Source: an uncultured Acidobacteriota bacterium
GTDB taxonomy: Bacteria; Acidobacteriota; Vicinamibacteria; Vicinamibacterales; 2-12-FULL-66-21
Assembly: GCA_963830815.1 (NCBI GenBank)
Contig: CAWHNN010000022.1
Coordinates: 25,753-89,752, forward strand
Length of the DNA stretch: 64,000 bases
Direction of reading: 5' to 3'
The position numbers and the translations under genes are program-made. This document shows positions 10,423 to 56,908 of this stretch, piece after piece (position 1 is the first letter of the stretch; each line of letters starts with the position of its first letter). The notes under the pieces are model-generated. The model saw nothing but the letters and a program-made list of their open reading frames with translations, was not told where the DNA came from and ran no database searches.

Positions 10423-10534
10423 TCGTCGGTCGATTGTATCTTAAGTTTCTGCGCCGTCTCGGGCGCGACTCCGTCGATCTTCGAGCAAAACTGCGGGCGT
10501 TCTGTGCGGTGACGCTCTTGCACTTCGATCGGCA

Positions 10535-26144: not shown

Positions 26145-26148
<4 letters not shown>
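24638..26148 (+). CDS. trpE: anthranilate synthase component I; two frame interruptions (about 24930 and about 25070)
   Basis: GTG start overlaps the aroDE stop (GTGA). LLTPVSAFLKI, FTGGAVGFIGYD, then an uninterrupted C-terminal block of about 350 aa with IAGTRPRG, LVDLGRNDLGRV and GAVGYVDFAGNLDFCIAIRT. Confidence 0.9.
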
Positions 26149-39591: not shown

Positions 39592-40629
39592 ATGCGACCG
39601 GAGCAGTGGGACACATTCAAGCGGGCGGCGCGTCTGGAAAAGCTCGACAAGATCCCGATGGCCCTCATCGTCGACAGTCCATGGATTCCCGGCTACCTCG
39701 GGATCAAGCACATGGACTACTACCTCGATCCCGAACTGTGGTTCCAGTCGAACCTCAAGATCATGCGGGAATACCCGGACGTGATCATGGTGCCGTCGTG
39801 GTGGATGGAATACGGCATGGCCGCCGAGCCGTCGGTCCTCGGCGCCAAGATCAAATTCTGGCAGGACAACACGCCGAGCGAGTATCACACGCTCTATCGT
39901 CTCGAGGACATCGACCAGTTCCCGGAGTACGAGGTCGAAGCCGACGCGTTCGCGGCGATGACACTGCACCGGATCGGGATGCACAAGCAGCGCATCCTCG
40001 ATGAAGGCTACATCCTGCCGATGGTGACCTCCCGCGGCCCGCTGTGCACGGCGGGCTTCGTGCGCAGCACCACGAACCTGATGATCGAGCTGGTGGAGAA
40101 TCCTGACGGCTGCCACAAGCTGATCGACCTGTGCACGCGCGTCATCATCGACTGGCTCAAGGCCCAGCACAAGGTGATGGGCGATACCGTCGAAGGCATC
40201 TTCATCCTCGACGACATCGTCGGCTTCATCAACGAGGAGCACTACAAGGAGTTCGCCCACCCGTATCTCAAGCGCATCTGCGATGCCTTTCCCGACGACT
40301 GGGTGAAGGTCTACCACAACGATGCCGAAGTCGACGCCTGCCTCGACCATCTGCCGGACGCCGGCTTCAACGTCCTCAACTGGGGCAAGCAGAAGGACAT
40401 CCGCGAGGTGAAGGCGCGCGTCGGCAAGCGCATGTGCCTGATGGGGAACGTCAATCCTCTCGAAATCGCGGTTCGCGGCACGCCCGGCGGAAGTGCGCGC
40501 CGCGACGCTCGACGTGCTGGAGGGTTCGGGCGGCGAGGGGATCATCCTTTCGGTCGGCGGCGGCGTGAGCCCGGGCATGCCCGGCGAGAACGTGCGCGCG
40601 ATGCTCGAAGCGCTCGAGACCTTCAATAG
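39592..40629 (+). CDS. uroporphyrinogen decarboxylase (URO-D) superfamily protein, MtaA/CmuA/O-demethylase methyltransferase-like rather than HemE; one or two frame interruptions near the 3' end
   Basis: About 300 aa are uninterrupted: MRPEQWDTFKRAARLEKLDKIPMALIVDSPWIPGYLG...ILDDIVGFINEEHYKEFAHPYLKRI...MGNVNPLEI, then GIILSVGGGVSPGMPGENVRAMLEAL in the next frame. It lacks the HemE N-terminal PVWxMRQAGRY motif. Confidence 0.7.
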   Translation: MRPEQWDTFKRAARLEKLDKIPMALIVDSPWIPGYLGIKHMDYYLDPELWFQSNLKIMREYPDVIMVPSWWMEYGMAAEPSVLGAKIKFWQDNTPSEYHTLYRLEDIDQFPEYEVEADAFAAMTLHRIGMHKQRILDEGYILPMVTSRGPLCTAGFVRSTTNLMIELVENPDGCHKLIDLCTRVIIDWLKAQHKVMGDTVEGIFILDDIVGFINEEHYKEFAHPYLKRICDAFPDDWVKVYHNDAEVDACLDHLPDAGFNVLNWGKQKDIREVKARVGKRMCLMGNVNPLEIAVRGTPGGSARRDARRAGGFGRRGDHPFGRRRREPGHARRERARDARSARDLQ

Positions 40630-40636
40630 CCGCTCG

Positions 40637-41925
40637 ATGATCCGCGCGTATCCGAGGTCTCCGCTGGTGGATGATCAGCCTGCTGATGCTGGGCGCGATC
40701 ATCAACTACCTCACGCGCAGCACGCTGGCGGTCGCGGCGCCGACCGATCATGGGCGATCTCGGGATCACGACGCGCCAGTATTCCTGGATTGTCGGTGCC
40801 TTCCAGGGCGCCATCATGCTGCAGCCGATCTGCGGCTACGTCATGGACGTCATCGGCCTCAAGTTCGGCTTCGCATTCTTTGCCCTCTCGTGGTCGGTCA
40901 TCAGCATGGCCCATGGCCTGGCCGGCAGCTGGACGGCGCTCTTCTGGCTGCGCGGGCTCCTCGGGCTCGCTGAGGGTTCGGCCAATCCCGCCGGGATGAA
41001 GGCCACATCCGAATGGTTCCCGGCACAGGAGCGGGGCCTCGCGGGAGGCGTCTTCAATATCGGCGCATCTTTCGGCTCGATGCTGGCGCCGCCGCTCGTG
41101 GCATGGGCGATCATCGCTCACAGCTGGCAGGCGGCGTTCGTGCTGACGGGTGCGCTCGGCCTCGTGTGGGTGGTGTTGTGGCTCTGGCTCTATCATCCGC
41201 CGGCGACGCATCCCGCGCTTTCGGAGACGGAACGGCAGCACATCCTGTCGGGGCAGGAGCAGCACCTCAAGAGTGATGGCCGCGCCCATCGATCGGCAGG
41301 ATTCTCACGCAACGCAACTTCTGGGGGATCGCCCTGCCACGATTCCTGGCCGATCCGACCTGGGGCACGCTGACGTTCTGGCTGCCGCTGTATCTCACGA
41401 CCGTGCGGCACTTCGACCTCAAACAGATTGCGCTCTTCGCGTGGCTGCCGTTCCTGGCGGCCGATCTCGGGTGCCTGTGCGGCGGGACCATCAGCCTGGC
41501 GCTCCAGAAGCGCTTCGGCATGAGCCTCATCAACGCCCGCCGCAGCGCGTTCACGGTCGGGGCATGTCTGATGGTGGGCGTGGCGTTTGTCGGGTTCGTC
41601 GACAGTCCCTACGTGGCGATCGCGCTCCTCAGCCTGGCCGGCTTCGCGCACCAGACGCTGTCGGTCACCGTCATCACGATGTCGTCGGATCTTTTCAAGC
41701 GCAACGAGGTCGCCACCGTCGCCGGCATGGCTGGTACCTGCGGCAACGCTGGGGTCCTGATCTTCTCGCTCCTCATCGGGTCGCTCGTCGACCAGCATCG
41801 GGTACTCGCCGTTCTTCGTCGGCCTGGCGGCGCTCGATCTGCTGGGCGCCGTCCTTCTGTGGACGCTCGTGCGCGAGCCTCGCCCGTCGGGACCGGCCAG
41901 CAGTCCGGCGGCGGCTGTCGCCTGA
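40637..41925 (+). CDS. exuT: MFS transporter, hexuronate (ExuT-like, ACS family); at least three frame interruptions
   Basis: [109 protein letters not shown] and [18 protein letters not shown]. Confidence 0.8.
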
Positions 41926-41929
41926 TCCC

Positions 41930-43603
41930 ATGGCCTCGCCACGCCGCGTCATCCGCAATCCGATTCTCCGCGGGCTTCAATCCCGATCCGTCCATCGTCA
42001 GGGTCGGCGACGACTACTACATCGCGACTTCGACGTTCGAGTGGTTCCCCGGCGTCCAGATTCACCACTCGCGGGATCTCGTCCACTGGCGTCTCCTGAC
42101 GCGACCGCTGACGCGCGCCAGCCAGCTGAACATGCTCGGCGATCCGGACTCGTGCGGCGTCTGGGCGCCGTGCCTGACATACGCCGATGGCCTCTTCCAT
42201 CTGATCTACACCGACGTCAAGCGCTACGGCCGCACGTCACAAGCCGGCGCCGCCGGCGCGTCGCTCCGCGATTTCCACAACTACCTCGTCACGAGCGCTC
42301 GTATCGACGGGGACTGGTCCGATCCTGTCTACTTGAACAGCAGCGGCTTCGACCCGTCGCTTTTTCACGACGACGATGGGCGCAAGTATCTCGCTGAACA
42401 TGTTGTGGGACCACCGCCCGGGTCAGAATCGCTTCGCCGGCATCGTGCTCCAGGAGTACTCGGCCTCCGAGCGGCGGCTGGTCGGTGACCGCAGAGTGAT
42501 TTTCGAAGGCACCTCGATCGGCTTCACCGAGGCGCCGCACGTCTACAAGCGCAACGGTTACTACTACCTGATCACCGCGGAGGGGGGAACGGGCTGGGGG
42601 CATGCCGTGACGATGGCGCGCTCGCGCAGTCTTCTCGGACCGTATGAGCTGCACCCCGACACCTACATCCTGACGCGCACGCCACCGGCCGGACGTCGAG
42701 CTCCAGCGGGCGGGGCATGCGGACCTGGTCGAGACGCAAAGCGGAGAAACATTCATGGTTTACCTCTGTGGCCGGCCACTTCGTAATCGCGGCCGGTGCG
42801 TGCTTGGTCGCGAGACAGCCATCCAGCGGATGGCGTGGTCCGCCGACGACTGGCTGCGCACTGAGGACGGGCAGGGGATTCCCGTCAGCGAGGTGACGGC
42901 GCCCGCGCTCCCGCCACACCCGTTTCCGAGCGATGCACCTGCGCGAAGACTTCGATGGGCCGCGACTGCCGACGGCCTTTCAATGGCTGCGCTCGCCATT
43001 TCCGGACGAGCTCTTCAGCCTGGCCGCCCGTCCCGGCCACCTTCGACTGTACGGGCGAGAAACCATCGGCAGTCAGTTTCGCCAGGCTCTCGTCGCACGT
43101 CGTCAACAGGCGTTCTGCTACAGCGCCGCGACGGCTGTCGAGGTAGAGCCGCAGCACTTCCAGCAGATGGCGGGTCTCGTCTGTTACTACAACAGCAGCA
43201 AGTTCCACTACCTCCACATCTCTCACGACCCGGCTGTCGGCAAACACGTGCGCGTCATGAGCTGCCTGCCTGACCAGGTTCAGTCCGACGCTTTCACGGC
43301 GCCGATCGCGATTCCTTCGGACCGTCGCGTGCACCTGAGAGTCGAAGTAGATTACGAACGCCTCCGCTTCGCCTATCGGGTCGAAGGCAGCGCCTGGCAG
43401 TGGCTGCCGCAGCAGTTCGACACGAGTATCCTCTCCGACGAAGCCACGGCCCCGGGACTGCCGAACTTTACCGGAGCGTTCGTGGGGATGGCCTGTCAGG
43501 ACATGGCGGGAACCGGGCATGCCCGCCGATTTCGACTACTTCGAATATCAGGAACGCGACTACCGGCAAGATCCCGCTCCGATTTCCTTATCGCTGCGAG
43601 TAG
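41930..43603 (+). CDS. glycoside hydrolase family 43 beta-xylosidase/alpha-L-arabinofuranosidase (XynB-like); at least four frame interruptions; 3' end uncertain
   Basis: [92 protein letters not shown], and a C-terminal beta-sandwich domain ([15 protein letters not shown]...[12 protein letters not shown]). Confidence 0.85.
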
Positions 43604-43627
43604 TCACCCGGCGTTGGAGGCGCACCG

Positions 43628-45765
43628 ATGGAGTTTTCGCGCAGAGATTTCGTCTCGACGGGACTGGCCGGAGCGGCAGGCATGCTTGCATCGAAGGCGA
43701 CGGCCGTTCATCTGAGCGCAGCCCCCCGCAGTTGGCCGACGAAGACGGCTACAAACTGTGGCTGCGGTTCGCGCCGCCGGGTGACGCTGCGACGCAGTAT
43801 CGCCAGGCCATTCGACAGATCGTCGTCGCGGGCACGTCGCCAACCTCCCGCATCATCAGGGACGAACTGACGGCGGCGACGACAGCGATGTTCGGCAGTG
43901 CTGTGCCCGTAACCGAGGCGGCGCAATTGCCAGCCGTCATCGTCGGGACGCCAAAAACGTCGTCAGTGATTCGCGATCTGAAGTGGGATGCTGAGCTGAC
44001 GAAGCTCGGTGGGGAAGGGTATCGCATCAGAACCGTTCGCCTGGCCAATCAGCCGACGGTGGTCGTTGCGTCCGAGGGCGACATCGGCGCCCTCTATGGC
44101 ACGTATCACTTCCTGCGGTTACTGCAGATCGGCAGTCCCATCGATAGGCTGGACGTCACGGAGCGGCCGAAGGTTCAGCTCCGGATGCTGAACCACTGGG
44201 ACAACATGGACGGCACGATCGAGCGCGGCTACGCCGGGCCGATCGCTCTGGCAGTGGAGCGAGTTACCCGGCACCCTCAGCCCGCGCTACGTCGACTATG
44301 CGCGGGCGAACGCGTCGATCGGCATCAACTGCACGGTCGTCAACAGCGTCAACGCCAACGCCATCATCCTGACGCCGGAGTACCTGCCGAAGGTGGCGGC
44401 CCTGGCGGACCTGTGGCGGCCGTATGGGCTGCGCGTCTATCTGTCTGCAAACTTCGCGGCGCCGATGAGGATCGGCGGCCTGAAGACGGCAGATCCGCTC
44501 GACCCAGGCGTCATCGCGTGGTGGAAGGCCAAGGCCGGCGAGATCTACAAGCTGATTCCTGATTTCGGCGGATTTCTCGTCAAGGCAAATTCTGAAGGCC
44601 AGCCCGGTCCCAAGGACTACGGCCGCAATCACGCCGAAGGCGCGAATTGTCTCGCCGACGCCGTCGCCGCAAACGGCGGCAACGTCATCTGGCGGGCGTT
44701 CATCTACGACGAAGACGTCGATCCCGACCGCGCCAAGCGTGCCTACATCGAGTTCACGAAGCTCGACGGCCAGTTCAAGCCGAACGTCCTCGTCCAGGTC
44801 AAGAACGGCGCCATCGACTTCATGCCACGCGAGCCGTTCCATCCGCTCTTCGGCGCGCTGAACAAGACGCCGGTCGTTGCCGAGATCCAGGCCACCCAGG
44901 AATACCTGGGCCAGGCCAAACACCTCGTCTATCTCGGGACGATGTGGGAAGAGTTTCTCGAGGCGGACACTTACGCGAAGGGCAAGGGATCAACAGTCGG
45001 GAAGGTGCTCGAGGGCAACGTGCATCCCTCAGCGAGTCACGGGAATCGTGTCCGTGCTCAACCCCGGCCTCGACCGCAACTGGTGCGGGCATCACTTCTC
45101 TCAGTCCAACTGGTACGCGAGCGGGCGGCTGGCATGGAACCCCGAGCTCTCGGCGCAGCAGGTTGCTGACGAGTGGACCCGGATGACGTTCAGCAACGAC
45201 GCCAAGCACCGTCGAGACGATCCGGACGATGATGATGGGCTCGCGCGAGGCGTTCGTGAACTACACGATGCCGCTCGGCCTGCATCACCTCATCGGCGGC
45301 AACCACTACGCGCCGATGCCCGACAACGCCAAGGCGCCGCGCGCCGACTGGACGGCCACCTACTACCATCAGGCGTCAGCCGAAGGCGTCGGCTTCGACC
45401 GCACGATGCGCGGCAACAAAGCCGTCGGCCAGTACTTTCCACCTGTGCGCGACATGTTCGACAGCCTCGACACCTGTCCCGAGATGTTCCTGCTGTGGTT
45501 TCACCGCTGCTCGTGGGATTACAAGCTCAAGTCCGGCAAGACGCTGTGGGCAGGATTGTGCGAGAAGTACCCGGAAGGGGCCCGGCAGGCGGCGGCCATG
45601 CAGTCAACGTGGCAGTCGCTGGCGGGGAAGATCGATCCGCAACGCCATCGCGAAGTCGCCGAGCGCCTGGCGATCCAGGTCGCGGACGCCAACAAATGGA
45701 GCGGAGAGATCCTGCGCTACTTCCAGACCTTCAGCAAACTGCCGATCAGCAATGCTGAAGTCTGA
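43628..45765 (+). CDS. aguA: glycoside hydrolase family 67 alpha-glucuronidase with a twin-arginine signal; at least four frame interruptions
   Basis: Tat motif [21 protein letters not shown]. Further segments: [74 protein letters not shown], and an intact C-terminal ORF of 178 aa. Confidence 0.85.
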
Positions 45766-45832
45766 ATGCTGAATGCTGAATGAATTTGAGGTCAGCCTTA
45801 CATTCAGCATTCAACATTCAGCATTCAGAATT
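45751..45832. repeat. imperfect palindrome built from GAATGCT / AGCATTC heptamers (copy 2 of 2), at a convergent gene junction
   Basis: AATGCTGAAGTCTGAATGCTGAATGCTGAATGAAT - 16-nt loop - ATTCAGCATTCAACATTCAGCATTCAGAATT. The stop codons of both convergent genes (45763..45765 on the plus strand, 45827..45825 on the minus strand) lie within the arms. Confidence 0.8.
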
Positions 45833-46678
45833 GCCCGAACGGTTCTCCCGCCGGAATCAGCTCGACCGGAACTTCGGTGATGAACGTCTTCAGCCAGTCG
45901 GCACAGACTTTCATCCCTGGCTCCTCTGATACTGCGTGGCCCATGACGATGACGCCTTTCGGGCGGCCGGCCGCGATGGCGTCATGCGCGTAGAAAAGTC
46001 CCTCCCACTCGCGCTGCTCGCCCGTGAACACGAGATCGGCGTCGGCCATCACTCGCATCATCGCCGGTAATTGTCCGTAGCCCGGCATGTAGCCGACCTT
46101 GGTGATCTTCGTCGCGGGATCGCCCATGAGGCGGAGCGCCTTGATCCCCATCTTCTCGCGCGTGAGCTTCGCTGCCGCCTCCAGCGTGATCTCCGGAATG
46201 GTGACGATGCGGCCCTGCGGCTGCACGTATTTCTCCCACCCCATCGCCTGATAGAAACCCTGCGCCATCGGCTCCGGGCCGGCGCATGTGCCAGTGGTCG
46301 TGGAAGCGCCAGACCACGAGGTCGTGCTTCTTGATCAGTTCGGCCTTGCGCTGATAGATCGGGTCGTTCTCGATCTCGGTGGTGCTGTCGGTGTGACCGT
46401 AGAACGTCGGTTCGTGGCTGATGATGAAGTTGCGGCCCGCGGCGGCCGCGCGCTCGAGGACCGACATCGTCGCCATCACCGTCGTGGCGATGCCACGCAC
46501 GGTCGTGTCCGGGTTGCCGGCCTTGAACGTGTCGACCGTCTCGGTTCGCCACGTCACGCCAAGGTTCGACTGGATGCGCTCAACGACCCGTTTCGGTGTC
46601 AGTGCAGATTGTGTTGCCTCGCCACTGTTCCCAAAAGCACCGCGCCGGCGCCCTGGCCACGAACTTCCGCCTCGTCAT
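45825..46678 (-). CDS. NIF3-family (dinuclear metal centre) protein with an apparent twin-arginine signal; at least three frame interruptions
   Basis: MTRRKFVA, then GAGAVLLGTVA in an adjacent frame. The body reads VDTFKAGNPDTTVRGIATTVMATMSVLERAAAAGRNFIISHEPTFY, and the C-terminal ORF of 147 aa reads ...VFTGEQREWEGLFYAHDA...VIVMGHAVSEEPGM. Confidence 0.65.
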
Positions 46679-48221
46679 GTCGCCCATGGCTGACTATCGT
46701 AGCGCCGTAGCGCGCGGCGCGAGAAGTAGCGCTCGGCGAACGTGATGAACGTCGGCCACGTCGGCTCCGGCGTGTGGCCGGCGGTGTGCTGGCGGAAGCC
46801 GAGATCGCCCTCGAGGATTGCGGTGTCGATCGGCGGAAACTCAGTCGTGCCGAGGTCTTTCTTGCCGAGCAGCTTGTAGACGGGACCGGCGCCGACAGCG
46901 GCAAGGAAGCTGCCCTTGGCGTCGACCCATGCGTCGTTGACGGCGACGGTGCCATCCGGCTGCACAGGGCCAGGGCCGGCGCCGGCGCTCAGGAACACCG
47001 GGCGCGGCGCGCACAACGCGATGAGCTCGTGCGAATCGACCGGCATCGTGTCCCAGCGCGCGGTGTACTTCAGATAGTTGCCCGCCATCCAGTGATAGAA
47101 CGAATTGGCGACGTTCTCGATCGTCTCGCCGTACTTGCGCCGATTGAGCTTGGCGCCACCCTGGCCGGAAGAGCTGATGTATCCGATCGCGAAGCGCTCG
47201 TCGAAAGCCATGGCGACGAGCGCGGCCTTGCCGGAGCGTGAATGGCCCTGGACGCCGACTCGCTTCGCGTCCACTGCCTTGTCGGTTTCGAAGTAGTCGA
47301 GCAGGCGGCTGGCGCCCCAGCCCCAGGCGGACAGCGCGCCCCAGTCGTCCAGTGCGCGCGGCTGGCCCTTGTTGACGAGGCCGATGATGCCTGACGTCAG
47401 CCCGGCGCCGCAGTCTCGCCTGCACGCTCCCGGTATTCAAGTTCGCGTAGCCCCAGCCCTTTGCGAGCAGCTGCTGCTGCCACGTCGGCCCCGTTGCCGC
47501 CGGCGGGCCTCCTGGCCCACGACCACCAGCAGGCGCCGCGCCTCGTCCACCTGCCGCGCCGAAACCTCCCGGCGGCGCGCACGGATTCGGCGGCGCTTCG
47601 ATGCCGGGAGCCGGCGGAAAGCCGCCGCCGCCAAAAATCACGATCACCGGGACGGGACCCGACGCGTTCGCGGGTGTATTCAGCGTCGCCTGGATCTCCA
47701 CCTTGATCGCCGGATACGCGGAATTGTCTACCGTGCCCAGCAGCTGCTTCGTGACGATCGGCGTATCGCCGTTCGTGCCCTTCGTCGTCGAGACGACCGC
47801 CCACGTGACCTTCGGCGTCTTCGGCGTGCGGCCGTAGATCTCGCGCTGGAAGTCTTCCAGGAGCTCCGCGCGCCGCTTGCTCCGCCACACCGCGGCCGTC
47901 GTCACCTTCTGGCCGCTCTTGAGCGTGAGCGGGTCGGGGAGGTTCGGATACGGATTGGCCGTCGCTTCGTTGTAGGTGTCGGGGCTCGAGCTCACTGCGC
48001 CAGGCGGGATCGCGGAGATCTTGAGCTGGTTCATGATCCGCTGCCGCTCGGCCTGATTCGCGAGCTGCACGGGCGTCGGCGGCGCTGGCGCCGCTGGAGG
48101 ATGCCGGCGCTGGCGTCTGTGCGGGCGCCTGCCCGGTTCCTTGCGCGACTGGGGAAACGCCAGAGGCCACGAGCACGAGGCCGAGAGACCACAGGATTCC
48201 GCGAGTCAAGCTTACTGACAT
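46675..48221 (-). CDS. carbohydrate esterase family 15 (glucuronoyl esterase)-like protein, secreted; at least three frame interruptions
   Basis: Signal peptide MSVSLTRGILWSLGLVLVASG. N-terminal domain ...PNLPDPLTLKSGQKVTTAAVWRSKRRAELLEDFQREIYG. Catalytic block VGVQGHSRSGKAALVAMAFDERF (GxSRxGK nucleophile motif) with a HTAGH-containing C-terminus. Confidence 0.75.
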
Positions 48222-48282
48222 CGATGCCTCGTCTTTCTATGCCGAAGGGGTGTTGCTGGCTCGCGCTACGATCCGCTGCGGG

Positions 48283-49165
48283 TTACGGCTCGCGCACCGC
48301 GCGGAATCCGATCATCCTGTGGCCTTGAAACGATGGCCACGCGGCCGATCGTCGGTAGGCGCGCAGGTCGAACGTCTCGACGAAGAACGATCCGCCGCGA
48401 ACCACGCGGTAGGCGCCCGTCGCCGGACCACGGGGATTCTTGCGCGGGGAGCTGGCGTAGTAGTCGCGGCTGTACCAATCCTGGCACCACTCCATGACGT
48501 TGCCCGCCATGTCGAGCGCGCCATACGGCGACGCATTACTATGCGTCTCGAGATCTCCTCGCTTGCTGCCGTCGAAGAATCCGGCGGGGCGCCCGGTGTC
48601 ATAGGTCTGTGCACCCACGAAGTTCGCGAACGACCGATCGATCGTGTTCCCCCACGGATAGCGGCGCTGATCGGTTCCGCGCGCGGCCTTTTCCCACTCG
48701 GCCTCCGTCGGCAGCCGGTACTTCTTGCCGGTTTTCGCGCTCAGCCAATTGCAGTAGGCGACCGCCGCGTCCCAGTTGACGCCGAGAAGGGGATAGCCGT
48801 CGCTGTCGGGAGTGCCTGCCGCCATGATTGTTCGCCTGCGTCCAGTACGGCACCTGATCGCGTGGCACGACACGCCCCTCGGGCCAGAAGCGCGGATCGT
48901 CGTAGCCGGGATCGTCGCGGAATTTCTTCCACTCGCCGTTGGTCATCTCGAGACGCGCGACGTAGAACGCGTCGAGCTCGACGGTGTGCACCGGCCGCTC
49001 ACGCGCATCGCCGTCGCCGAAGGAATCGCCCATCTGAAAGGCGCCGGGCGGCACGTAGAGATAGTCGCCGTGCCCATCGTTCACGACTTTGGCGGGCTGG
49101 GCGCTGGCCGCCATGACGACGAAGACAGTCGCAAATGCCGCGGCGGGGAAGGCGATTCGTTCCAT
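48283..49165 (-). CDS. formylglycine-generating-enzyme (SUMF1/FGE-sulfatase) domain protein, secreted; one frame interruption near 48830
   Basis: [23 protein letters not shown] (signal peptide), [20 protein letters not shown], then [13 protein letters not shown]...[15 protein letters not shown]...[11 protein letters not shown]...RVVRGGSF. Confidence 0.75.
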
Positions 49166-49169
49166 GTGG

Positions 49170-50039
49170 CTACTTGCTCGACAAGAAGCCGCCGAGTTTG
49201 AGGAATCGCTCGAGATCGGACATCCAGCCGCCAAACTCCGGGCTGCCGAAGCCGCTGCCGAAGCCGTGACGGCCTTTCTGGTAGACGTGTATTTCGGCCG
49301 TCGCTCCCGCCCGCGTCAGATCCATGAAGAGTTGCGCGTTGCCGAGTGACGGCCCCTGATCGCCTGCGGCTGAAACGAGGAACGTCGGAGGAAAACTCTT
49401 CAGGGACTCGCCCGGCGTTGCTCTGCCAGCGCCGTAGACGAGCGCGAGATAGTCTGGTCTCGAGCTCACGCGCTCGAGTGCGTCCGCCGCCTCGGAATCA
49501 CTGGCCCGCGCGTTTGCAACGACCGTGCGCCCCATGTTCGAGCCCGCCGAGAAACCGATGTAGCCAATCTTCGCGGGATCGAGCTTCCACGCGGCGGCAT
49601 TGCCACGTACGACCTGGATGGCACGCATGCCGTCGAGAGTCCGCGCGTCGTCGCCGTAGCGCGGCGACAGGCGATAGGTCAGCACGAACGCCGTGACACC
49701 CCAGTCGTTGTAGCGCTCGGCAATCTCGAGACCCTCGGCGCCGTACATCAGCATGATGTTCGCGCCACCGGGCGCAATGACGACGGAGCCACCGTTCCGC
49801 TTTCCCTCCGGCGGCAGGAAGGCGGTCAGGAAAGGCGCGTCGAGCGGACCGTCTCCCTTTGCGAGCGGAACCTTGCCCGCGTCCCACAACGGAACGTTGC
49901 GGTACTGCGTCAGCGCTCCGTTCTCGGACGGCGCAGCGGCACCGCCGCTGGAACTCGCCGCAAGGGACGTTGGGATCGTGTGAAGAACAACGAGGAACGA
50001 CGCCACACAGATAACAGGCTTGATCATCTGTCCTTGCAC
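49170..50039 (-). CDS. secreted alpha/beta hydrolase (esterase/lipase fold; possible acetyl-xylan or feruloyl esterase)
   Basis: Intact 289-aa ORF with a signal peptide and the nucleophile elbow GFSAGS in IGYIGFSAGSNMG. It lies in the same minus-strand run as CE15. Confidence 0.65.
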   Translation of the reverse strand: MQGQMIKPVICVASFLVVLHTIPTSLAASSSGGAAAPSENGALTQYRNVPLWDAGKVPLAKGDGPLDAPFLTAFLPPEGKRNGGSVVIAPGGANIMLMYGAEGLEIAERYNDWGVTAFVLTYRLSPRYGDDARTLDGMRAIQVVRGNAAAWKLDPAKIGYIGFSAGSNMGRTVVANARASDSEAADALERVSSRPDYLALVYGAGRATPGESLKSFPPTFLVSAAGDQGPSLGNAQLFMDLTRAGATAEIHVYQKGRHGFGSGFGSPEFGGWMSDLERFLKLGGFLSSK

Positions 50040-50094: not shown

Positions 50095-50122
50095 TGGACA
50101 AAAGCGAAAAAGATAATAGAAT
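50095..50122 (+). promoter_or_regulatory. candidate sigma-70 promoter TGGACA-N16-TAGAAT for the corrinoid operon
   Basis: TGGACA (50095..50100), 16-nt spacer, TAGAAT (50117..50122), in an AT-rich gap. GGAGA at 50156..50160 precedes the ATG at 50170. Confidence 0.4.
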
Positions 50123-50169
50123 GAAGGGCTTACGATTGCAACTATCGCTCGCTGTGGAGACGACACGGG

Positions 50170-50813
50170 ATGCCTGACTACGCGTTGATGAATCAGCACC
50201 TCTACGAGGGCAAGGCCAAGGAGGTCGAGCAGATGACGCGCGACGCCCTGGCTGAAGGGCGCCCGGTGCAGGAGGTCCTGACCGATGGACTCATTGCCGG
50301 CATGAGTGTCGTCGGCGAGGACTTCAAGCACAACGTGCTCTACGTTCCCGAGGTCCTGATTGCGGCGCGCGCGATGAAGGCCGGCATGGCCGTGCTCAAG
50401 CCGCTCCTGAGCGCACGCGAAGGGCGAATCGTCTCGCACCGGCGTGCTCCTGATGGGTACCGTTCGCGGCGACCTGCACGACATCGGCAAGAACCTCGTG
50501 CTGCATGATGGCCGAAGGCGCCGGGTTCGAAGTGCACGACATCGGCGTCGACCAGAGCGTCGAGAAGTTCATGGCCGCGGCGGACAAGTGCCAGCCGACG
50601 ATCATCGGCATGAGCGCGCTCTTGACGACGACGATGACGTACATGAAGACGGTCATCGACGGCTTCGAGAGCGCCGGCCGCGGCAGCATCAAGATGGCTG
50701 TCGGGGGCGCGCCCATCAGCCAGATGTTCGCCGATGAGATCGGCGCCGACGGCTACGGTCAGAATGCGTCCGCCGCGGTGGACCTGTTCCTGCGCCTGTC
50801 GCGAGAAGCGTGA
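50170..50813 (+). CDS. corrinoid (cobalamin)-binding protein, MtaC/MtbC/MetH-B12-domain type; two frame interruptions
   Basis: B12-cap helix bundle (LYEGKAKEVEQMTRDALAEG...VPEVLIAARAMKAG), then GTVRGDLHDIGKNLV (DxHxxG), then MSALLTTTM and VGGAP (SxL...GG). The three parts are in three frames. Confidence 0.85.
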
Positions 50814-50817
50814 CCGC

Positions 50818-51078
50818 ATGCTGACGACCTACAAGATCCTCTGCTGGCAGGAGATTCCCTCGCAGATCAAGGCCGAAGACGAAAGGGAAGAGGTCACTGT
50901 CAACCTCTCGCCGCGCTTCATGGAGCGCATCGATCAACTCGCGGCGAAACGCGGGCTGCAGGGATCGGACGACTATCTCGCGCAGTGGCAGTGGAGCGAC
51001 GAGCAGCAGCGCGAGGGCGCGGCGCCTGACGTCGCGGAAGCACTGCGGCTGGAACTCGAAGCGAAGGCCGACTGGTAA
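50818..51078 (+). CDS. small conserved protein of the kind commonly found next to RACo/corrinoid methyltransferase genes (function unknown)
   Basis: 86 aa from the ATG at 50818: MLTTYKILCWQEIPSQIKAEDEREEVTVNL... The family assignment is from memory only and has not been searched. Confidence 0.55.
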   Translation: MLTTYKILCWQEIPSQIKAEDEREEVTVNLSPRFMERIDQLAAKRGLQGSDDYLAQWQWSDEQQREGAAPDVAEALRLELEAKADW

Positions 51079-51088
51079 AACCCGCAGC

Positions 51089-52735
51089 ATGCTCTCGGTC
51101 ACGATCAACGGAACACACGTCGAGATCCCCCCGGGGACGTCCATGTTCGACGCCGCCAGTCAGGCCGGTGTCCGTGTGCCGACGTCGTGCGTCGCCCAGG
51201 GCAAATGCAAGGAGTGCATCGTCGAGGTGACACGCGGCGCAGAGCTTCTGAACGCGCGGACGGAGTGCGAGCAACACCTCACGGGAGCCTTCAGGCTGTC
51301 CTGTCAATGCCGGCCGACGACGGAGTCGGGCGCCATCGACTGTCACACGATGCGCCGGGGCCACATGCGCATCGAACGCCACGCGCTCAATCTACCCGCA
51401 AGCCAGACGCGTCTCCCGCTCGATCCGCCCGTTATCCGCGACGGCTCGCGCATCGTCGATCGTGTCACTGGCACTGTCCTGGCGGAGTCTGACGGCCCGA
51501 TTCATGGGCTCGCCATGGACATTGGAACGACGACGGTCGTCATACGGCTGCTCAATCTCGAGACGGGCGAGCTCGTTGCCGATGCCTCGTTGGAGAATCC
51601 GCAGCGCTTTGGCGGCTCCGACGTGATGTCCCGCATTCACTACGACACTGAGCACCGCGGCAAGCTGCTACGGCGAACACTCGCGGGCTACCTCACGCAC
51701 GCGATCGAGGAGTTTCCCGTCGATCCAGCGACCATCTACGAGGCCGTCGTCGTCGGCAACGCCACGATGCGCGATCTGTTCTTCCGGCAGAGCGTGTATT
51801 CAATCGGCCAGAATCCGTATCGATCCATCACCGAGATCGAGATGGCAGCAGGAACGCGCGCGACGACGAGCCTGACGGAAACTGGTCGCCGCTGCCTCCT
51901 GCCGATTCATCCCCGCGCGCGCGTCTATGGACTGCCGGTGATCAGCGGCCACGTCGGCGCCGATGCTGCCGCGTGCATGCTCGCGGTCGGGCTCGCTGAC
52001 GAAGAGCGGCTCGTCGCCATCATGGACATCGGAACAAACACCGAGCTCATCCTCGGAAACAGGCACCGCATCGTTGCTGCGTCCTGCCCGGCGGGTCCCG
52101 CGTTCGAGGGCGGAGCGATCGCCTGTGGCATGCCCGGCCTCGAAGGCGCGATTGAGGATGTCCGGCTGAACGATCGCGGCGGCTTCGATTGCGGCGTGAT
52201 CGGCGGTGGCCGCGCAGAAGGCATCTGCGGCTCGGGCCTCGTCGATCTCATGAGCGAGCTGCTTCGCGCCGGGCACATGAACGCGATGGGGCGATTCGAC
52301 GACGGCGTGTCGCGCATGACGATCGATGCCGCGAACGATATCTATTTCCTCGAGAGCGACGTCAACGAGCTGGCGCAGGCCAAGGGCGCCAACGTCGCCG
52401 GCCTGCACGTCGTCTTCAGCAGCTTTGGTATCTCCTTTGATGCCGTCGATGTGTTCTATCTCGCGGGCGGCTTCGGACGGCACTTGAAGAAGGAAGCATC
52501 GCGGCGTATCGGCCTGATCCCCAACCTGCCCGACGGCAAGATCGTGCAGGTGGGCAACGCGGCCATCGAAGGCGCGTGTATCGCGCTTCTGTCGCTGGAG
52601 CAGCGGGCGGTCATCGAATCGCTCGTGCGCAAAGTCGAACACTGCCGCCTCGAAACGCATCCCGACTTCTTCGACTTCTTCGTTGACGGGTGTCAGTTCA
52701 AGCTCGTGGAGTCGAGCGATTCGGTACCGCGATGA
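51089..52735 (+). CDS. reductive activator of corrinoid proteins (RACo-type: 2Fe-2S ferredoxin domain plus ASKHA ATPase domain)
   Basis: Intact 548-aa ORF. N-terminal plant-type ferredoxin cysteines (SCVAQGKCKECIVEV...LSCQC), then ASKHA motifs (GLAMDIGTTTVV, IMDIGTNTELIL, CPAGPAFEGG, ICGSGLVDL). Confidence 0.85.
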   Translation: MLSVTINGTHVEIPPGTSMFDAASQAGVRVPTSCVAQGKCKECIVEVTRGAELLNARTECEQHLTGAFRLSCQCRPTTESGAIDCHTMRRGHMRIERHALNLPASQTRLPLDPPVIRDGSRIVDRVTGTVLAESDGPIHGLAMDIGTTTVVIRLLNLETGELVADASLENPQRFGGSDVMSRIHYDTEHRGKLLRRTLAGYLTHAIEEFPVDPATIYEAVVVGNATMRDLFFRQSVYSIGQNPYRSITEIEMAAGTRATTSLTETGRRCLLPIHPRARVYGLPVISGHVGADAAACMLAVGLADEERLVAIMDIGTNTELILGNRHRIVAASCPAGPAFEGGAIACGMPGLEGAIEDVRLNDRGGFDCGVIGGGRAEGICGSGLVDLMSELLRAGHMNAMGRFDDGVSRMTIDAANDIYFLESDVNELAQAKGANVAGLHVVFSSFGISFDAVDVFYLAGGFGRHLKKEASRRIGLIPNLPDGKIVQVGNAAIEGACIALLSLEQRAVIESLVRKVEHCRLETHPDFFDFFVDGCQFKLVESSDSVPR

Positions 52736-54000
52736 TCGAGATCATCGACACGTCCCCGGATATCGACGTCGCTGCTGTCGAATACAAGCGGCTGCTGGGA
52801 TACCCGCGCGACTCGGTCGTCAGCGATCGGGCGCAGGAATTGATGGATTTGGCGCGCGGGTGGTACCGAACGCACGGACGTCCGTGGGTACAGGCACGGC
52901 AGGCCGACGGCCTGGAACTGTCTGGCAATGCCGTGACGATCGATGGCGTGCCTTTCTCCAGTCCCCGGCTGTCGCAAACGCTCAGGAACGCGACCGCCGA
53001 CAGCGCCATCGTCGTCGCCGTGAGCGCCGGACCCGAGCTCGAGGCCGAGGCGCAGCAGCTGTGGCGCGACGGTAAGCCCGACGAGTACTTCTTCCTCGAA
53101 GTGTATGGCTCGGCGGTCGTCGAGCATCTGGTGACGATGACCGGGGCGCGGCTGTGCGCGTGGGCGGAGTCGAGGCACATGGCCGTGCTGCCGCACTACA
53201 GTCCTGGCTACCCGGAGTGGTCGATTGAAGAGCAGCCGCGGCTCCTGGATCTGATCAATCGGCTGCAGCCGGCAATGCCGGCACCTGTCGAAGTGATGGA
53301 TTCGGGGATGCTGCGCCCGAAGAAGTCGCTGCTCGCAGTGTTCGGGATCACGAGACACGTCGACCGCGTGCAGCGGCTGACCGCTCTCACCCCGTGCGAG
53401 AACTGTTCGTACTTGCCGTGTCAGTATCGGCGCGCGCCGTACCGGCGGGCACCGCTGCCAGCGAACCCCGAGTTGTCGGCGCTCTCACGGGAAACAAGCG
53501 TTGAAGCGGCGAGGCCGAGGCCGGCGCTGCACCGGCTACAACTCTCGACCATGGCCACTACACCGTGAACCTCAAGGCCCTGCAGCGGTGGAGCGAGGAG
53601 CGTCTGTCGCTTTCCCGGCGCGCCGACGGCGGCGTCGACGCCACGTTCCGCTACGAAGGGACGACGTGCACGAACATGGGCAGGGCACTGAAGTTCGACT
53701 ACCGGGTGACGCTTGGTCCGCCGCAGGACGGCTATCCGATCAGGGAGCAGCGGTGCGCGCCTGCCGAAGGCGACACCGGGTACACCTACATGTGCCGTTA
53801 CCTGAGCAACCGTGAGCAACTGCTCGTGGCGATCGATCGACGAGCAGCCGTTGAACGGCAAGCCGCTGAACGACGTGCTCGGGTGGACGCGGGCGGCGAG
53901 CGGCGCCGGCTGCTACTGCGAGCCGGAGAGCCGGCAGCACAAGTGGGGCCTGGTGCTCGAAACCATTCATTTCGCGCTGGCGCGGGAAGGCGGAGACTAG
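52732..54000 (+). CDS. methionine synthase activation (AdoMet-binding, Met_synt_B12-like) domain protein with a Cys-rich C-terminal extension; probably two frame interruptions (about 53540 and about 53830)
   Basis: ATGA overlap with the RACo stop. EYFFLEVYGSAVVEHL...LPHYSPGYPEWSIEEQPRLLDLI resembles the MetH reactivation domain. The extension reads HYTVNLKALQRW...TCTNMGRAL...YMCRYL, then GAGCYCEPESRQHKWGLVLETIHFAL. Confidence 0.65.
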
Positions 54001-54943
54001 GTGGAGGCGCAGAAACAACGGTTGCAGGACAAAGTCAGGGAGCGGCCTCTGCTCGGCGACGGCGCCATGGGCACGCAGTTGATGATTGCCGGCCTCGAGC
54101 AGGGCAATTGCGGCGAGGCATGGAACCTGACTCACCCCGAGCGCGTGCTGGCCATCCAGCGGCGCTACGCCGAAGCCGGCTCGGACTGCATCATCACGAA
54201 CACGTTCGGCGGGTCGCGCATCATGCTCAATCGGCATGGTCATGCCGGCGACGTCGCCGCGGTCAATCGTGCCGGTGTCGAGATCGCGCGCGAGGCGTTC
54301 GACGGCCGCGAAGGGTGGGTGCTCGGCGACATCGGTCCCTTCGGCGGACTGATGGAGCCATACGGCGACTTCACCGAGGACCAGGTACGACGGGCGTTCG
54401 CCGAGCAGGCCGAGGCGCTCGTTGGCGCCGGGGCCGACGCGCTCATCATCGAGACCCAGACATCGCTCGAGGAATTGCAGCTCGCCATCGAAGCGGCGCG
54501 GAATGCCGGCGCACCATGCGTCATCGGCTCGATGGCCTACGACGTCACGCTCGACGGTTCGACGTTCCGCACGATGATGGGCATCGATCCGGAACGCGCG
54601 GCCGACGTTCATGGGCGAACACGGCGCCGACATCGTGGCGCTCAACTGCGGCACGGGCATGGATATGGAGCGCGCGCGGCAGGCCGTGCGGCGCTATAAG
54701 GACACCACCGGCTTGCCGGTGATGGCGCAGCCAAACGCGGGTCAGCCCAAGCTCGTGGCGATGAAAGTCGTGTACGACGAAACACCAGAGCAGATGGTGT
54801 GCGGCGTCGTCCCTCTCCTCGAAGCCGGAGTCGACATCGTCGGCGCGTGTTGCGGGAGCACTCCCGAACATATCCGGGCGTTTCGCAACGCCATGGACCA
54901 CTACCTGGCCGGGCGGGCGAGCCGGCAGGAACTTTCACGATAG
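54001..54943 (+). CDS. homocysteine S-methyltransferase domain protein (MetH N-terminal module-like); one frame interruption near 54600
   Basis: GTG immediately after the upstream TAG. LLGDGAMGTQL, DCIITNTFGGS, ADALIIETQTSLEE, then ADIVALNCG...VGACCGSTPEHI (zinc-binding Cys motifs). Confidence 0.85.
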
Positions 54944-54950
54944 GCAGGGC

Positions 54951-55298
54951 ATGAAGGTAAAGATTTGCGACGTCAACCCGGCGGCTGTCGAGAAACTGCC
55001 GCGTCTCACCGACGACAAGTCAGGGATTGGCGTGCACTACGTCGACGCGTACCTGAAGCCGATGAACGTGCAGCTTGGTGACGGCACGTTCGTGAAGTGC
55101 AAGCGCCGCGGTCTCAAGATCGCGCTCGCCATCGGCAGCCGAAAGGGCGAGGGCCTGATGCGACGGCTCGACGTGAGCACCGATCCCGTGGCGATGCTCG
55201 ATGCCGCGTTGCAGGAAGCGGCGCGCGGCGCGGGTGTCGAGCTCGCGGTCGAAGATGGCGGCCTCTATGTGACCCTCGCGGACGCGGCAAACGGGTAG
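54951..55298 (+). CDS. hypothetical protein (115 aa), last gene of the corrinoid operon
   Basis: Intact ORF 8 nt after the Hcy-methyltransferase stop, with sense-like composition (MKVKICDVNPAAVEKLPRLTDDKSGIGVHYVDAYLKPM...). I recognise no motif. Confidence 0.55.
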   Translation: MKVKICDVNPAAVEKLPRLTDDKSGIGVHYVDAYLKPMNVQLGDGTFVKCKRRGLKIALAIGSRKGEGLMRRLDVSTDPVAMLDAALQEAARGAGVELAVEDGGLYVTLADAANG

Positions 55299-55391: not shown

Positions 55392-56908
55392 ATGATTCGG
55401 TCTGCTGTGAGCCCAACGGTGGCGCTCGCCACTTCGCCTGTCGCCGAGATCGAGACAGATCTCCTTGTAATCCCGTTCGTCGAAGGCGAACAGCTCCTGC
55501 AGGCAATTCCAGGCCTCGCTGAGGCGACGGGGGGCGCGATCGAGCGCGCGCTCGCTTCGAAAGAAGTCCAGGGAAAGCCCTACGAGCTATTTCTGACGCC
55601 TGTCCTGAAGGGCTGGAAGGCGACGCGCGTGGCGCTCATCGGCGCCGGACCCGCCGCTGGCGCGAACCTCGAACGTCTGCGCCGGCTGGCGACCACCGCG
55701 GCGCTGGCGGCACGCCAGCGTCACGTCGCGCGAATCGCGTTCGTGCAGCGCCTGCCTCTCGATCCCTTCGAAGGTGTACAGGCCGTCACCGAAGGGTTGA
55801 CCCTCGCGGCGTTCAGCGGCGATCGCTACAAGAGTCAGGATCGAAGCGGCGCGGCGCCGGAACAGATGCTCGTAGTTGCCACGGCGGCGCAAGCCTCTGC
55901 GGCGACGCTCGAGAAGGCTGTCGAACGCGGCCGCATCCTCGGCGAGTCGTCGAACATGGCGCGCGATCTCTGCAACGAGCCGGCGAATGTCTTGACGCCG
56001 TCTGTGTTTGCCGAGCGCGGCGCGGCCATCGCGCGCGAGGCCGGACTCGAGGTCGAAGTTCTCGACGAAGACGAGATCGAACGGCTGAGCATGGGGCTGC
56101 TGCTCGGTGTCGCCCGCGGCAGCGCCGAACCGCCGCGCGTGATTGTCATGACGCACAATCCGCCTGGCGCGCCTGCCTCTCCCGTCCTCGGACTCGTGGG
56201 CAAGGGCATCACGTTCGACACCGGCGGCATCTCCATCAAGCCCGCGGAGGGCATGGAGCGGATGAAGGACGACATGGCGGGCGGCGCAGCAGTCATCGGC
56301 GCCATGCGCGCCATCTCGCTGCTGAAAGCGCCAATCAAAGTCGTCGGCATCGTTCCGGCCTCCGAGAACATGCCGGGGGACGCGCGACCAAGCCTGGCGA
56401 CGTCCTGACTGGCGCCGGCGGTAAGACCGTCGAGGTGCTCAACACCGACGCCGAGGGCCGGCTGATTCTCGGTGACGGCCTCTGGTACGCCCAGCGCCTC
56501 GGAGCGACGCACCTGATCGATGTCGCAACGCTGACCGGCGCCTGCGTCGTCGCGCTCGGCAAGGTCGCGTCGGGACTTTTCGGCGAGCCGCAGTCCTGGG
56601 TGGCGAGCGTGTCGCAGGCGGCCGCCCGTGCCGGCGACCGCGCCTGGCCGATGCCGCTCTACGACGAGTACTTCGAGCAGATGCGCAGCGAAATCGCCGA
56701 CATGGTCAACACCGGCGGACGCGCCGCTGGCGCCTGCACCGCGGCGAGCTTCCTCAAGGAATTTGCCGGCGGCCTGCCGTGGGCGCATCTCGACATCGCC
56801 GGCACGGCCTGGGCGGACGAGACCAAGCCCTGGCAGCCAAAGGGGCCGACGGGTGTCGCGGTGCGCACGCTGGCGGAGTTGGCCTTCACCAGCGGAGAGT
56901 GGAAGTAA
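55392..56908 (+). CDS. pepA: leucyl aminopeptidase (M17); one frame interruption near 56385
   Basis: VGKGITFDTGGISIKP, DDMAGGAAV, then in the next frame NTDAEGRLILGDGLWYA...HLDIAGTAW. TATAAT at 55375..55380 lies just upstream. Confidence 0.9.

Follow-up and report, generated by a model that had tools for sequence, protein, structure and literature searches.

Where does the methyl group come from, and how is the cofactor kept active, in a corrinoid operon that encodes a homocysteine methyltransferase and no pterin-binding protein? This question is raised by a 64,000-nucleotide stretch of DNA (the window) from an uncultured Acidobacteriota bacterium of the order Vicinamibacterales (assembly GCA_963830815.1, contig CAWHNN010000022.1, positions 25,753 to 89,752, forward strand). 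A reading of its letters (the original prediction) had described a disaggregated, MetH-related operon with two different corrinoid reactivation systems and a methyl donor that was not obvious. Our computational analysis leads us to propose, with a probability of about 0.55, that the window encodes a cobalamin-dependent methyl-transfer system of three components, which ends in methionine and belongs to a widespread, undescribed type. The genes concerned code for a URO-D-family methyltransferase (URO-D), a corrinoid carrier (B12), a Virulence_fact protein (VIR), a RACo-type reductive activase (RACo), an unannotated 419-aa protein (X419), a homocysteine S-methyltransferase (SMT) and a small protein called p115 in the window and p109 in relatives, where most have 109 aa.

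RESULTS

A constant set of genes in three phyla

Species-level genomes with the system number at least 452, from the Acidobacteriota, Planctomycetota and Methylomirabilota, and the cultured genus Gemmatirosa has it as well. Gene context was counted over 83 loci (designated by L numbers), including 80 fetched from species-representative genomes, against a total of 452 genomes matched. Throughout the three phyla the genes follow one another in the order URO-D, B12, VIR, RACo, X419, SMT and p109, with p109 always the last gene of the operon. RACo and X419 were present at all 83 loci, SMT and p109 at 81 each, B12 at 74, VIR at 73 and URO-D at 68. Missing genes were mostly accounted for by contig ends, and L004-L006 and L008 had no URO-D within range. 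One exception to this otherwise constant gene set is L025, from a Humisphaera sp., at which URO-D, B12, VIR, RACo and X419 are present and neither S-methyl_trans nor p109 occurs within 10 kb downstream.

Among the Acidobacteriota the hosts belong to the Vicinamibacterales, Acidobacteriaceae and Bryobacteraceae, among the Planctomycetota to the Tepidisphaeraceae, Phycisphaerales and Lacipirellulaceae, and others are Methylomirabilota. Gemmatirosa kalamazoonensis KBS708, a cultured aerobe, also carries a complete operon, on its plasmid 1 of 1.1 Mb. Two copies were found in the metagenome-assembled genome CAWCQI01, namely L004, a window-type copy with no URO-D next to it, and L042, with a divergent URO-D (67%); this reflects either paralogy or contamination of the bin.

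Several of the proteins are fused in one or another variant. L086 encodes a URO-D::B12 fusion of 645 aa, which is CmuA-like, and a RACo::X419 fusion of 948 aa, and in L002 and L087 B12 is fused to VIR, the latter being joined to the C terminus of the corrinoid protein (planctomycetes and Gemmatirosa). The URO-D subfamily is exchanged while the core stays in L086, L090 and L091, as expected for a substrate-specific component on the donor side. AraC regulators appear in the variants L090 and L091, and in the neighborhoods of window-type operons no adjacent transporter or AraC regulator is conserved. L090 is a low-GC variant (34%), in which a CobW-family metallochaperone GTPase (10259-11161) lies beside a second URO-D paralogue and a corrinoid protein, suggesting that metal insertion is part of some such systems.

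Frameshifts in the window

Alignment of the DNA with that of L088, the closest relative (95% DNA identity, same gene order), revealed single-nucleotide insertions in the window at 50422 and 50500 in the B12 gene, at 53837 in the X419 gene and at 54607 in the SMT gene. L088 is in frame at all four sites. A fifth break near 53507, in the linker of X419, is probably a 1-nt deletion, and both assemblies are disturbed there. L088 has an indel of its own at the equivalent of 51476, where the window is intact; it likewise comes from an ENA assembly, with a different set of frameshifts. Intact homologues with 73-93% identity have 419-420 aa for X419, 213 aa for the B12 protein and 319 aa for SMT. Many other genes of the window are split as well, among them chorismate synthase (9241-10440), trpE (24620-26145), pepA (55392-56908) and URO-D. 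Because the indels are window specific, L088 has others and housekeeping genes are also split, the frameshifts in the operon are assembly errors, and its proteins can be read in repaired form. A pseudogenized or decaying operon was rejected on these same grounds. Any reading of this error-prone assembly that is based on open reading frames (ORFs) thus needs repair.

A URO-D-family methyltransferase with a shared operator

A methyltransferase of the URO-D/MtaA family, the proposed enzyme of the donor side, was missed in the original prediction. In the window its gene lies 10.5 kb upstream of the B12 operon, whereas at 68 of the 83 related loci it is the first gene of the operon. By tblastn, the window protein is 98% identical to the URO-D of the syntenic locus L001 and 84% identical to a planctomycete one, and it matches Pfam URO-D (PF01208) with an E value of 3e-42. 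The NCBIfam model TIGR01463 (mtaA_cmuA) scored 104 bits (cutoff, 235) and hemE 64 bits, both below their cutoffs, so that by score the protein is closer to the MtaA/CmuA models than to HemE. Its neighbors in PDB were true UroDs, CdmB and MtaA, with E values of 1e-12 to 1e-9. When it was aligned to UroD, YHND and SVGGG stood at the positions expected for the zinc ligands of MtaA; we take the motif HxC...C to be the zinc site of the thiol-methylating members MtaA and MtbA.

The 64-kb window contains exactly two sites of the form TTGTTC-N7-RRACAA, a candidate operator, where 0.00 would be expected; one lies upstream of URO-D and the other at the B12 promoter (Table 1). As it is common to these two promoters and found nowhere else in the window, the displaced URO-D gene still appears to belong to the same regulon as the B12 operon. 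Both sites are present in L001, and the one upstream of its URO-D is near-identical to that of the window. The copy at the B12 promoter is conserved in L001 and L004-L008, and related TTGT...ACAA palindromes are found upstream of URO-D in Acidobacteriaceae and planctomycete loci.

The DNA between the URO-D and B12 genes of the window (40687-50039) codes for an MFS transporter, GH43, a GH67 alpha-glucuronidase, a NIF3-like protein, a CE15-type glucuronoyl esterase, an FGE-sulfatase-like protein and an esterase. By gene content it is a predicted xylan side-chain (debranching) cluster, inserted between URO-D and the operon in this lineage. At L001, GH67 alone is inserted in this gap. GH67 releases 4-O-methylglucuronate, a methyl ether, and its presence may be a coincidence or a hint at the methyl donor in this lineage.

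Acceptor, carrier and small proteins

The homocysteine S-methyltransferase and the B12-binding protein were both recovered as predicted. PF02574 matched the two pieces of SMT in the window, and the zinc cysteine motifs NCGTG and ACCG are retained. The intact orthologue of L001 matched the homocysteine domain of Thermotoga maritima MetH (1Q7M) with an E value of 1e-45; other PDB matches were BHMT (4e-15) and HMT (4e-10), and the NCBIfam models of YitJ type, BHMT/MtgE type (PRK07534, 224 bits) and MetH all scored below their cutoffs. A homocysteine domain activates a thiol acceptor and therefore would set the direction of methyl flow, which we infer from the established chemistry of this domain, with URO-D as the putative enzyme on the donor side.

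The carrier contains the motifs DLHDIG, SALL and GG and is 88-95% identical to the intact 213-aa protein of L001. Its best NCBIfam models were those of the methylotrophic corrinoid proteins MtgC (176 bits) and MtbC, below cutoff, and it resembles MtgC/MtbC more than it does the B12 domain of MetH. It is 36% identical to the corrinoid domain of CmuA. The small conserved protein that follows it proved to be of the Virulence_fact family (PF13769). Where the operon ends, the predicted 115-aa ORF is present; its 6363 homologues have neither a name nor a Pfam domain, and the AlphaFold2 (AF2) model of p115 (pLDDT, 74.6) had no fold match in PDB (best E value, 0.33).

An optional folate branch

The window contains no Pterin_bind or MTHFR gene, as had been predicted, whether searched by tblastn with a related pterin protein or by Pfam on all but a few pieces of the ORFs supported by third-position GC content (GC3), taken from across the window. 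No pterin gene was found on the Gemmatirosa plasmids at an E value below 1e-10 either. At 11 of the 83 loci, in contrast, the operon is directly adjoined by three genes, encoding an MTHFR with DUF5981, a Pterin_bind protein of 319 aa and an amidohydrolase. The three always occur together, as seen in L002 (2148-5950), L009, L012-L015, L032, L036, L046, L058 and L091. In planctomycetes the module is divergent from the operon, L032 has it upstream and co-directional, and L046 has it downstream. The distant variant L091 carries it inside the operon, between B12 and RACo. Thus, the folate branch is real but modular, being optional and separately encoded, and the lack of a pterin gene here comes down to where the gene is located or to the branch being optional. 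That no pterin methyltransferase gene adjoins the operon holds for the window and fails for these 11 relatives. An amidohydrolase is likewise found beside cmuA in the cmu cluster of pCMU01, but it is unrelated in sequence to that of the triad.

Direct adjacency of the triad, in three arrangements, is what one would expect if the operon were a split MetH such as that of the Rhodobacterales, supplied with methyl-tetrahydrofolate by an unlinked pterin methyltransferase, with URO-D on a side branch or not acting as the methyltransferase of the carrier at all. SMT and the B12 protein do resemble MtgE/BHMT-type and MtgC-type proteins, respectively, and a split MetH with a RamA-like activase has been established experimentally in Phaeobacter and Ruegeria (PMC5764234, PMC12478193). 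However, it is URO-D that is found in the operon at 68 of the 83 loci, against 11 for the pterin gene. URO-D is also fused to the corrinoid domain in L086 and shares its operator with the operon in the window, and neither the window nor the Gemmatirosa plasmids have a pterin homologue. We therefore regard a split MetH of this kind as rather unlikely, noting that it overlaps with the explanation that we favor, as both flows may coexist in the manner of MtgBCDE.

The folate module also bears on a catabolic role, in which a cmu-like or O-demethylase-like system would pass the methyl group of a growth substrate mainly to tetrahydrofolate, homocysteine being a minor sink. L091 has such an appearance, since its single AraC-controlled operon comprises URO-D, B12, the MTHFR and pterin methyltransferase genes, RACo, X (as two genes) and p109, and no SMT, and the URO-D::B12 fusion of L086 has the architecture of CmuA. 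In peat, Acidobacteriota express genes of corrinoid methyltransferases that act on methanol and methoxylated compounds (PMC10805028), which fits this role without being specific to it. Nevertheless, a window-type SMT is present at 81 of the 83 loci compared with an adjacent folate module at 11, neither a transporter nor an AraC regulator is conserved beside window-type operons, and their URO-D is unusually conserved, all of which makes a demethylase improbable.

RACo and X419 as a proposed joint repair machine

The activase has the complete architecture predicted for it, with E values of 2.6e-10 for Fer2, 2e-33 for Raco_middle and 4e-67 for RACo_C_ter. The NCBIfam models AcsV (282 bits) and RamA (139 bits) both scored below their equivalog cutoffs. 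X419 directly follows RACo at all 83 loci and in the distant variants L085, L090, L091 and L092, and in the window the stop codon of RACo and the start codon of X419 overlap (ATGA), indicating translational coupling. L090 and L091 have the RACo/X pair without a homocysteine methyltransferase; therefore, the pair is not specific to methionine synthesis. RACo, X and p109, the latter in L086 and L091, make up a general repair and accessory set of URO-D-type corrinoid systems, in which the acceptor module is exchangeable.

X419 has more than 4,000 homologues, which are 415-430 aa long when intact and yield 1,464 representatives at 50% identity clustering; in public sources none has a name or a Pfam domain. 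It consists of an N-domain (about aa 1-215), a linker with a CxxCxxxxC motif and a C-domain (about aa 270-419). The original prediction had taken the protein for a homologue of the MetH reactivation domain, extended by a Cys-rich region. Profile searches, whose failure the original prediction had named as grounds for refutation, gave this assignment no support. Four close homologues had no Pfam match at E values up to 10, ten distant homologues had no match to Met_synt_B12 (PF02965) at E values up to 1, NCBIfam yielded no match, a family profile found nothing among PDB sequences, and comparison with Escherichia coli MetH by hhalign and the family HMM gave nothing significant. These negative results are weak evidence, because the activation domain of E. 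coli MetH itself fails to find TM0269 by phmmer.

The assignment survives at the level of the fold. In the AF2 model of X419 (mean pLDDT, 74.8), most of the N-domain reaches values of 80-95, and its best Foldseek match in PDB was TM0269 (1J6R), with an E value of 1.4e-8, a target-normalized TM-score of 0.83 and a root mean square deviation of 3.2 Å over 207 columns. All of the top 17 matches were MetH activation domains. As modeled, the N-domain thus has the fold of a MetH activation domain. By eye, the stretches VAVSAGPE...PDEYFFLE...SPGYPEW...DSGMLRPKKSLLAVFG of X419 parallel FAVTGGLE...DDYNKIMV...PGYPACP...ESFAMWPGASVSGWYF of E. coli MetH. P158 and G159 of the SPGY motif are invariant in the family and S157 and Y160 nearly so, and this Tyr would correspond to the MetH Tyr positioned over cobalamin's upper face (Tyr1132 in Thermus thermophilus).

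The Cys-rich extension is real and conserved. The 150-aa C-domain, which is a separate gene in L090 and L091, contains four cysteines, C310, C352, C391 and C393, that are invariant across homologues down to 31% identity, and over the same range C142 and C222-x2-C225-x4-C230 are nearly invariant. C142 and the CxxCxxxxC motif are also retained in relatives of 237-247 aa that consist of the N-domain only. The cysteines lie in the least confident loops of the AF2 model, as expected for a metal site that was not modeled, and the two conserved clusters probably hold metal or Fe-S centers. No fold was assigned to the C-domain, its matches to NTF2/OCP-CTD-like proteins being weak (E value, about 0.2).

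The presence of both RACo and a domain with the MetH activation fold had suggested two independent repair routes in one operon, reductive methylation with S-adenosylmethionine (AdoMet) as in MetH and an ATP/ferredoxin route as for RACo. The by-eye parallel between SPGY...SGML.PKKS of X419 and PGYPACP...ESFAMWPGASVSG of E. coli MetH would agree with this notion. We take RxxxGY, a motif reportedly described by Dixon et al. in 1996, to be the AdoMet-binding motif of the Met_synt_B12 activation domain. In the X419 family, however, its Arg is not conserved, the position being occupied by His in most members and by Pro, Gln, Phe or Arg in others. Moreover, the family adds about eight conserved cysteines that MetH lacks, X419 is never separated from RACo at the 83 loci and is fused to it in P0173, and the pair also occurs in systems devoid of a homocysteine module. 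Two separate routes are thus very unlikely, and because X419 follows RACo everywhere, including the distant variants, and occurs as a fusion with it, the two proteins look like parts of one composite repair machine rather than of two rival systems.

Layout of the window locus

The coordinates of the features are given in Table 1. The predicted sigma-70-like promoter of the B12 operon is present. Its -35 and -10 boxes are kept in five of six related loci, the sixth, L007, having no -10 stretch in the alignment, and the flanks on both sides of the promoter are also conserved among the six. The 5′ leader that follows the -10 box (50123-50169, GGGCTTACGAWTGCAACTG) is kept among the close relatives L001, L004-L006 and L008, and matched no Rfam family at the gathering threshold. 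More generally, no Rfam family other than tRNAs was found above the gathering threshold in the window and four related loci, which gives no sign of control by an AdoMet or B12 riboswitch. In L001 (12825-13340, minus strand), L004-L006 and L008, the operon is followed on the opposite strand by a gene for a conserved 171-aa protein without a Pfam domain, a homologue of which was not detectable in the window.

Table 1. Positions of the operon, the URO-D gene and their control elements in the window
Feature	Position	Strand	Basis or remark
Operator candidate (inverted repeat) TTGTTCGAGTCGCAAACAA	39469..39487	+	105 nt upstream of the URO-D start codon
URO-D/MtaA-CmuA-family methyltransferase (proposed methyl donor:corrinoid methyltransferase, MT1)	39592..40642 (end approximate)	+	tblastn, Pfam; frameshift near 40485
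Second copy of operator candidate TTGTTCGCGACGTGGACAA	50083..50101	+	Overlaps the -35 box of the B12 promoter
Promoter TGGACA-N16-TAGAAT, sigma-70-like	50095..50122	+	10/12 consensus positions matched
Corrinoid (B12) carrier, cap and Rossmann domains	50170..50813	+	Pfam B12-binding_2 and B12-binding
Virulence_fact (PF13769) protein VIR, 86 aa	50818..51078	+	Pfam, E value 1.4e-15
RACo/RamA-type ATP-dependent reductive activase, 548 aa	51089..52735	+	Pfam Fer2, Raco_middle, RACo_C_ter
X419, unannotated protein of 419 aa	52732..54000	+	No Pfam/NCBIfam match; start overlaps RACo stop (ATGA)
MetH-type homocysteine S-methyltransferase (SMT; proposed methylcorrinoid:homocysteine methyltransferase, MT2)	54001..54943	+	Pfam S-methyl_trans on both pieces
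p115 (p109 in relatives)	54951..55298	+	No Pfam or NCBIfam match

DISCUSSION

The description of the locus as a disaggregated MetH-related system was borne out, as its genes are separate, its homocysteine module is of the MetH type and its activase is a genuine RACo. In the mechanism that we propose, the URO-D methyltransferase would take the methyl group of a donor and load the Co(I) corrinoid carrier with it, giving a methyl-Co(III)-carrier, from which the zinc-dependent SMT would pass it to homocysteine to yield methionine. Carrier that has been oxidized to Co(II) would be repaired by the RACo/X419 machine. RACo would contribute an ATP-driven electron from its [2Fe-2S] cluster, and X419, through its domain resembling the MetH activation domain, would dock on the upper face of the corrin in the way known from MetH, and possibly relay electrons or trap Co(I). 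The Virulence_fact protein and p115 would be further accessory subunits. Where it is encoded, the optional module of pterin methyltransferase, MTHFR and amidohydrolase would link the same carrier to methyl-tetrahydrofolate.

Several points weigh against this proposal. Window-type URO-D proteins are 83-98% identical across phyla, and such conservation is more in keeping with a universal metabolite than with a niche substrate. The alignment with UroD, read against the MtaA motif, suggests that the thiol-activating zinc site is absent from URO-D. Given the adjacency of the folate triad at 11 of the 83 loci, methyl-tetrahydrofolate could be the main donor everywhere and URO-D have another role. 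As for X419, its N-domain has no detectable sequence similarity to MetH, and the AF2 model is of medium confidence, with the Cys loops as its worst parts. A bolder version of our proposal may also be considered, and we hold it only tentatively. The operon would then be a folate-independent B12-dependent methionine synthase that receives its methyl groups via URO-D from a non-folate donor, be it a methyl halide, a plant compound bearing methoxyl groups or an unrecognized metabolite, and that is served by an aerobic repair machine composed of RACo and an Fe-S-bearing X419, the latter acting as a general partner of RACo in many corrinoid methyltransferase systems.

To our knowledge, the activases described so far act alone on their corrinoid protein. 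The activase of this operon shares the full [2Fe-2S], middle and ASKHA architecture of RACo, RamA and the O-demethylase activating enzymes in a 548-aa protein, and differs from them by its obligate neighbor or fusion partner X419. With canonical MetH of E. coli, T. thermophilus and humans, the system has in common the homocysteine domain, the cap and B12-binding domains with DxHxxG and the activation-domain fold. However, its components are encoded by separate genes, in the window as in the intact loci L001 and L002, the window locus has no folate domain, X419 adds Cys clusters and a C-domain of 150 aa, and RACo provides an ATP-dependent reduction. The N-domain of X419 matches no structure better than that of TM0269 (1J6R), a stand-alone activation protein and likewise a separate polypeptide. 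The two are only 16% identical, X419 has in addition C142, the CxxCxxxxC motif and usually the Cys-rich C-domain, and it is coupled to RACo and not to a MetH that lacks its activation domain.

Of the systems described so far, the split MetH/MtgBCDE of the Rhodobacterales comes nearest; the operon shares its logic, whereas the family of the donor enzyme and the accessory proteins differ. Both have distinct proteins for the homocysteine methyltransferase, the corrinoid carrier and a RamA/RACo-like activase, both use one carrier for several methyltransferases, both keep a pterin methyltransferase and an MTHFR paralogue as a module apart, and both work in aerobes. In Phaeobacter inhibens and Ruegeria pomeroyi, the activase is RamA-like and accompanied by DUF1638 (PMC5764234, PMC12478193). 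The donor-side enzyme there is MtgB, of the MttB family, and here a member of the URO-D family. X419, the Virulence_fact protein and p109 in one tight operon set our system further apart, as do the host phyla and the NCBIfam scores below cutoffs. No DUF1638 or MttB-family domain was found in the ORFs of the window or in the Pfam-annotated related loci, and MtgD, the pterin methyltransferase, together with MetF2 is absent from the window.

As in CmuA/CmuB and in the O-demethylases of the UroD family (OdmB, VdmB and CdmB), a methyltransferase of the URO-D fold would load a corrinoid domain. A folate branch of pterin methyltransferase and MTHFR, an amidohydrolase in the cluster and the CmuA-like fusion of L086 add to this likeness. 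On the other hand, window-type URO-D matches CmuA of pCMU01 with an E value of 1e-4 and 21% identity, the amidohydrolases do not match, and cmu has neither the homocysteine acceptor nor the RACo-X419-p109 set. Orthology with the chloromethane cluster was thus rejected, given the marginal similarity and a parallel in architecture alone. The type 1 mlp clusters of anaerobes (PMC10418091) are also different, as they contain several Mlp paralogues and no homocysteine module and are restricted to obligate anaerobes. We found neither this operon nor X419 described in the literature searched.

Three of the seven proteins of this system have no assigned function, namely X419 and p109, which belong to no named family, and the Virulence_fact protein. 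In the variants examined, which come from several phyla, X419 always accompanies RACo. Should reactivation depend on it, the current in vitro models of ATP-dependent corrinoid repair would fall short for these systems, and X419 would show how the oxygen-sensitive chemistry of Co(I) persists in aerobic soil bacteria. If the donor is an environmental methyl compound, the operon would link the scavenging of methyl groups directly to the supply of methionine in two soil phyla that are dominant yet poorly cultured, the Acidobacteriota and Planctomycetota. Pathway prediction that searches for MetH, MetE or split MetH would be likely to overlook it. The complete operon of the cultured G. kalamazoonensis KBS708 makes the question experimentally approachable.

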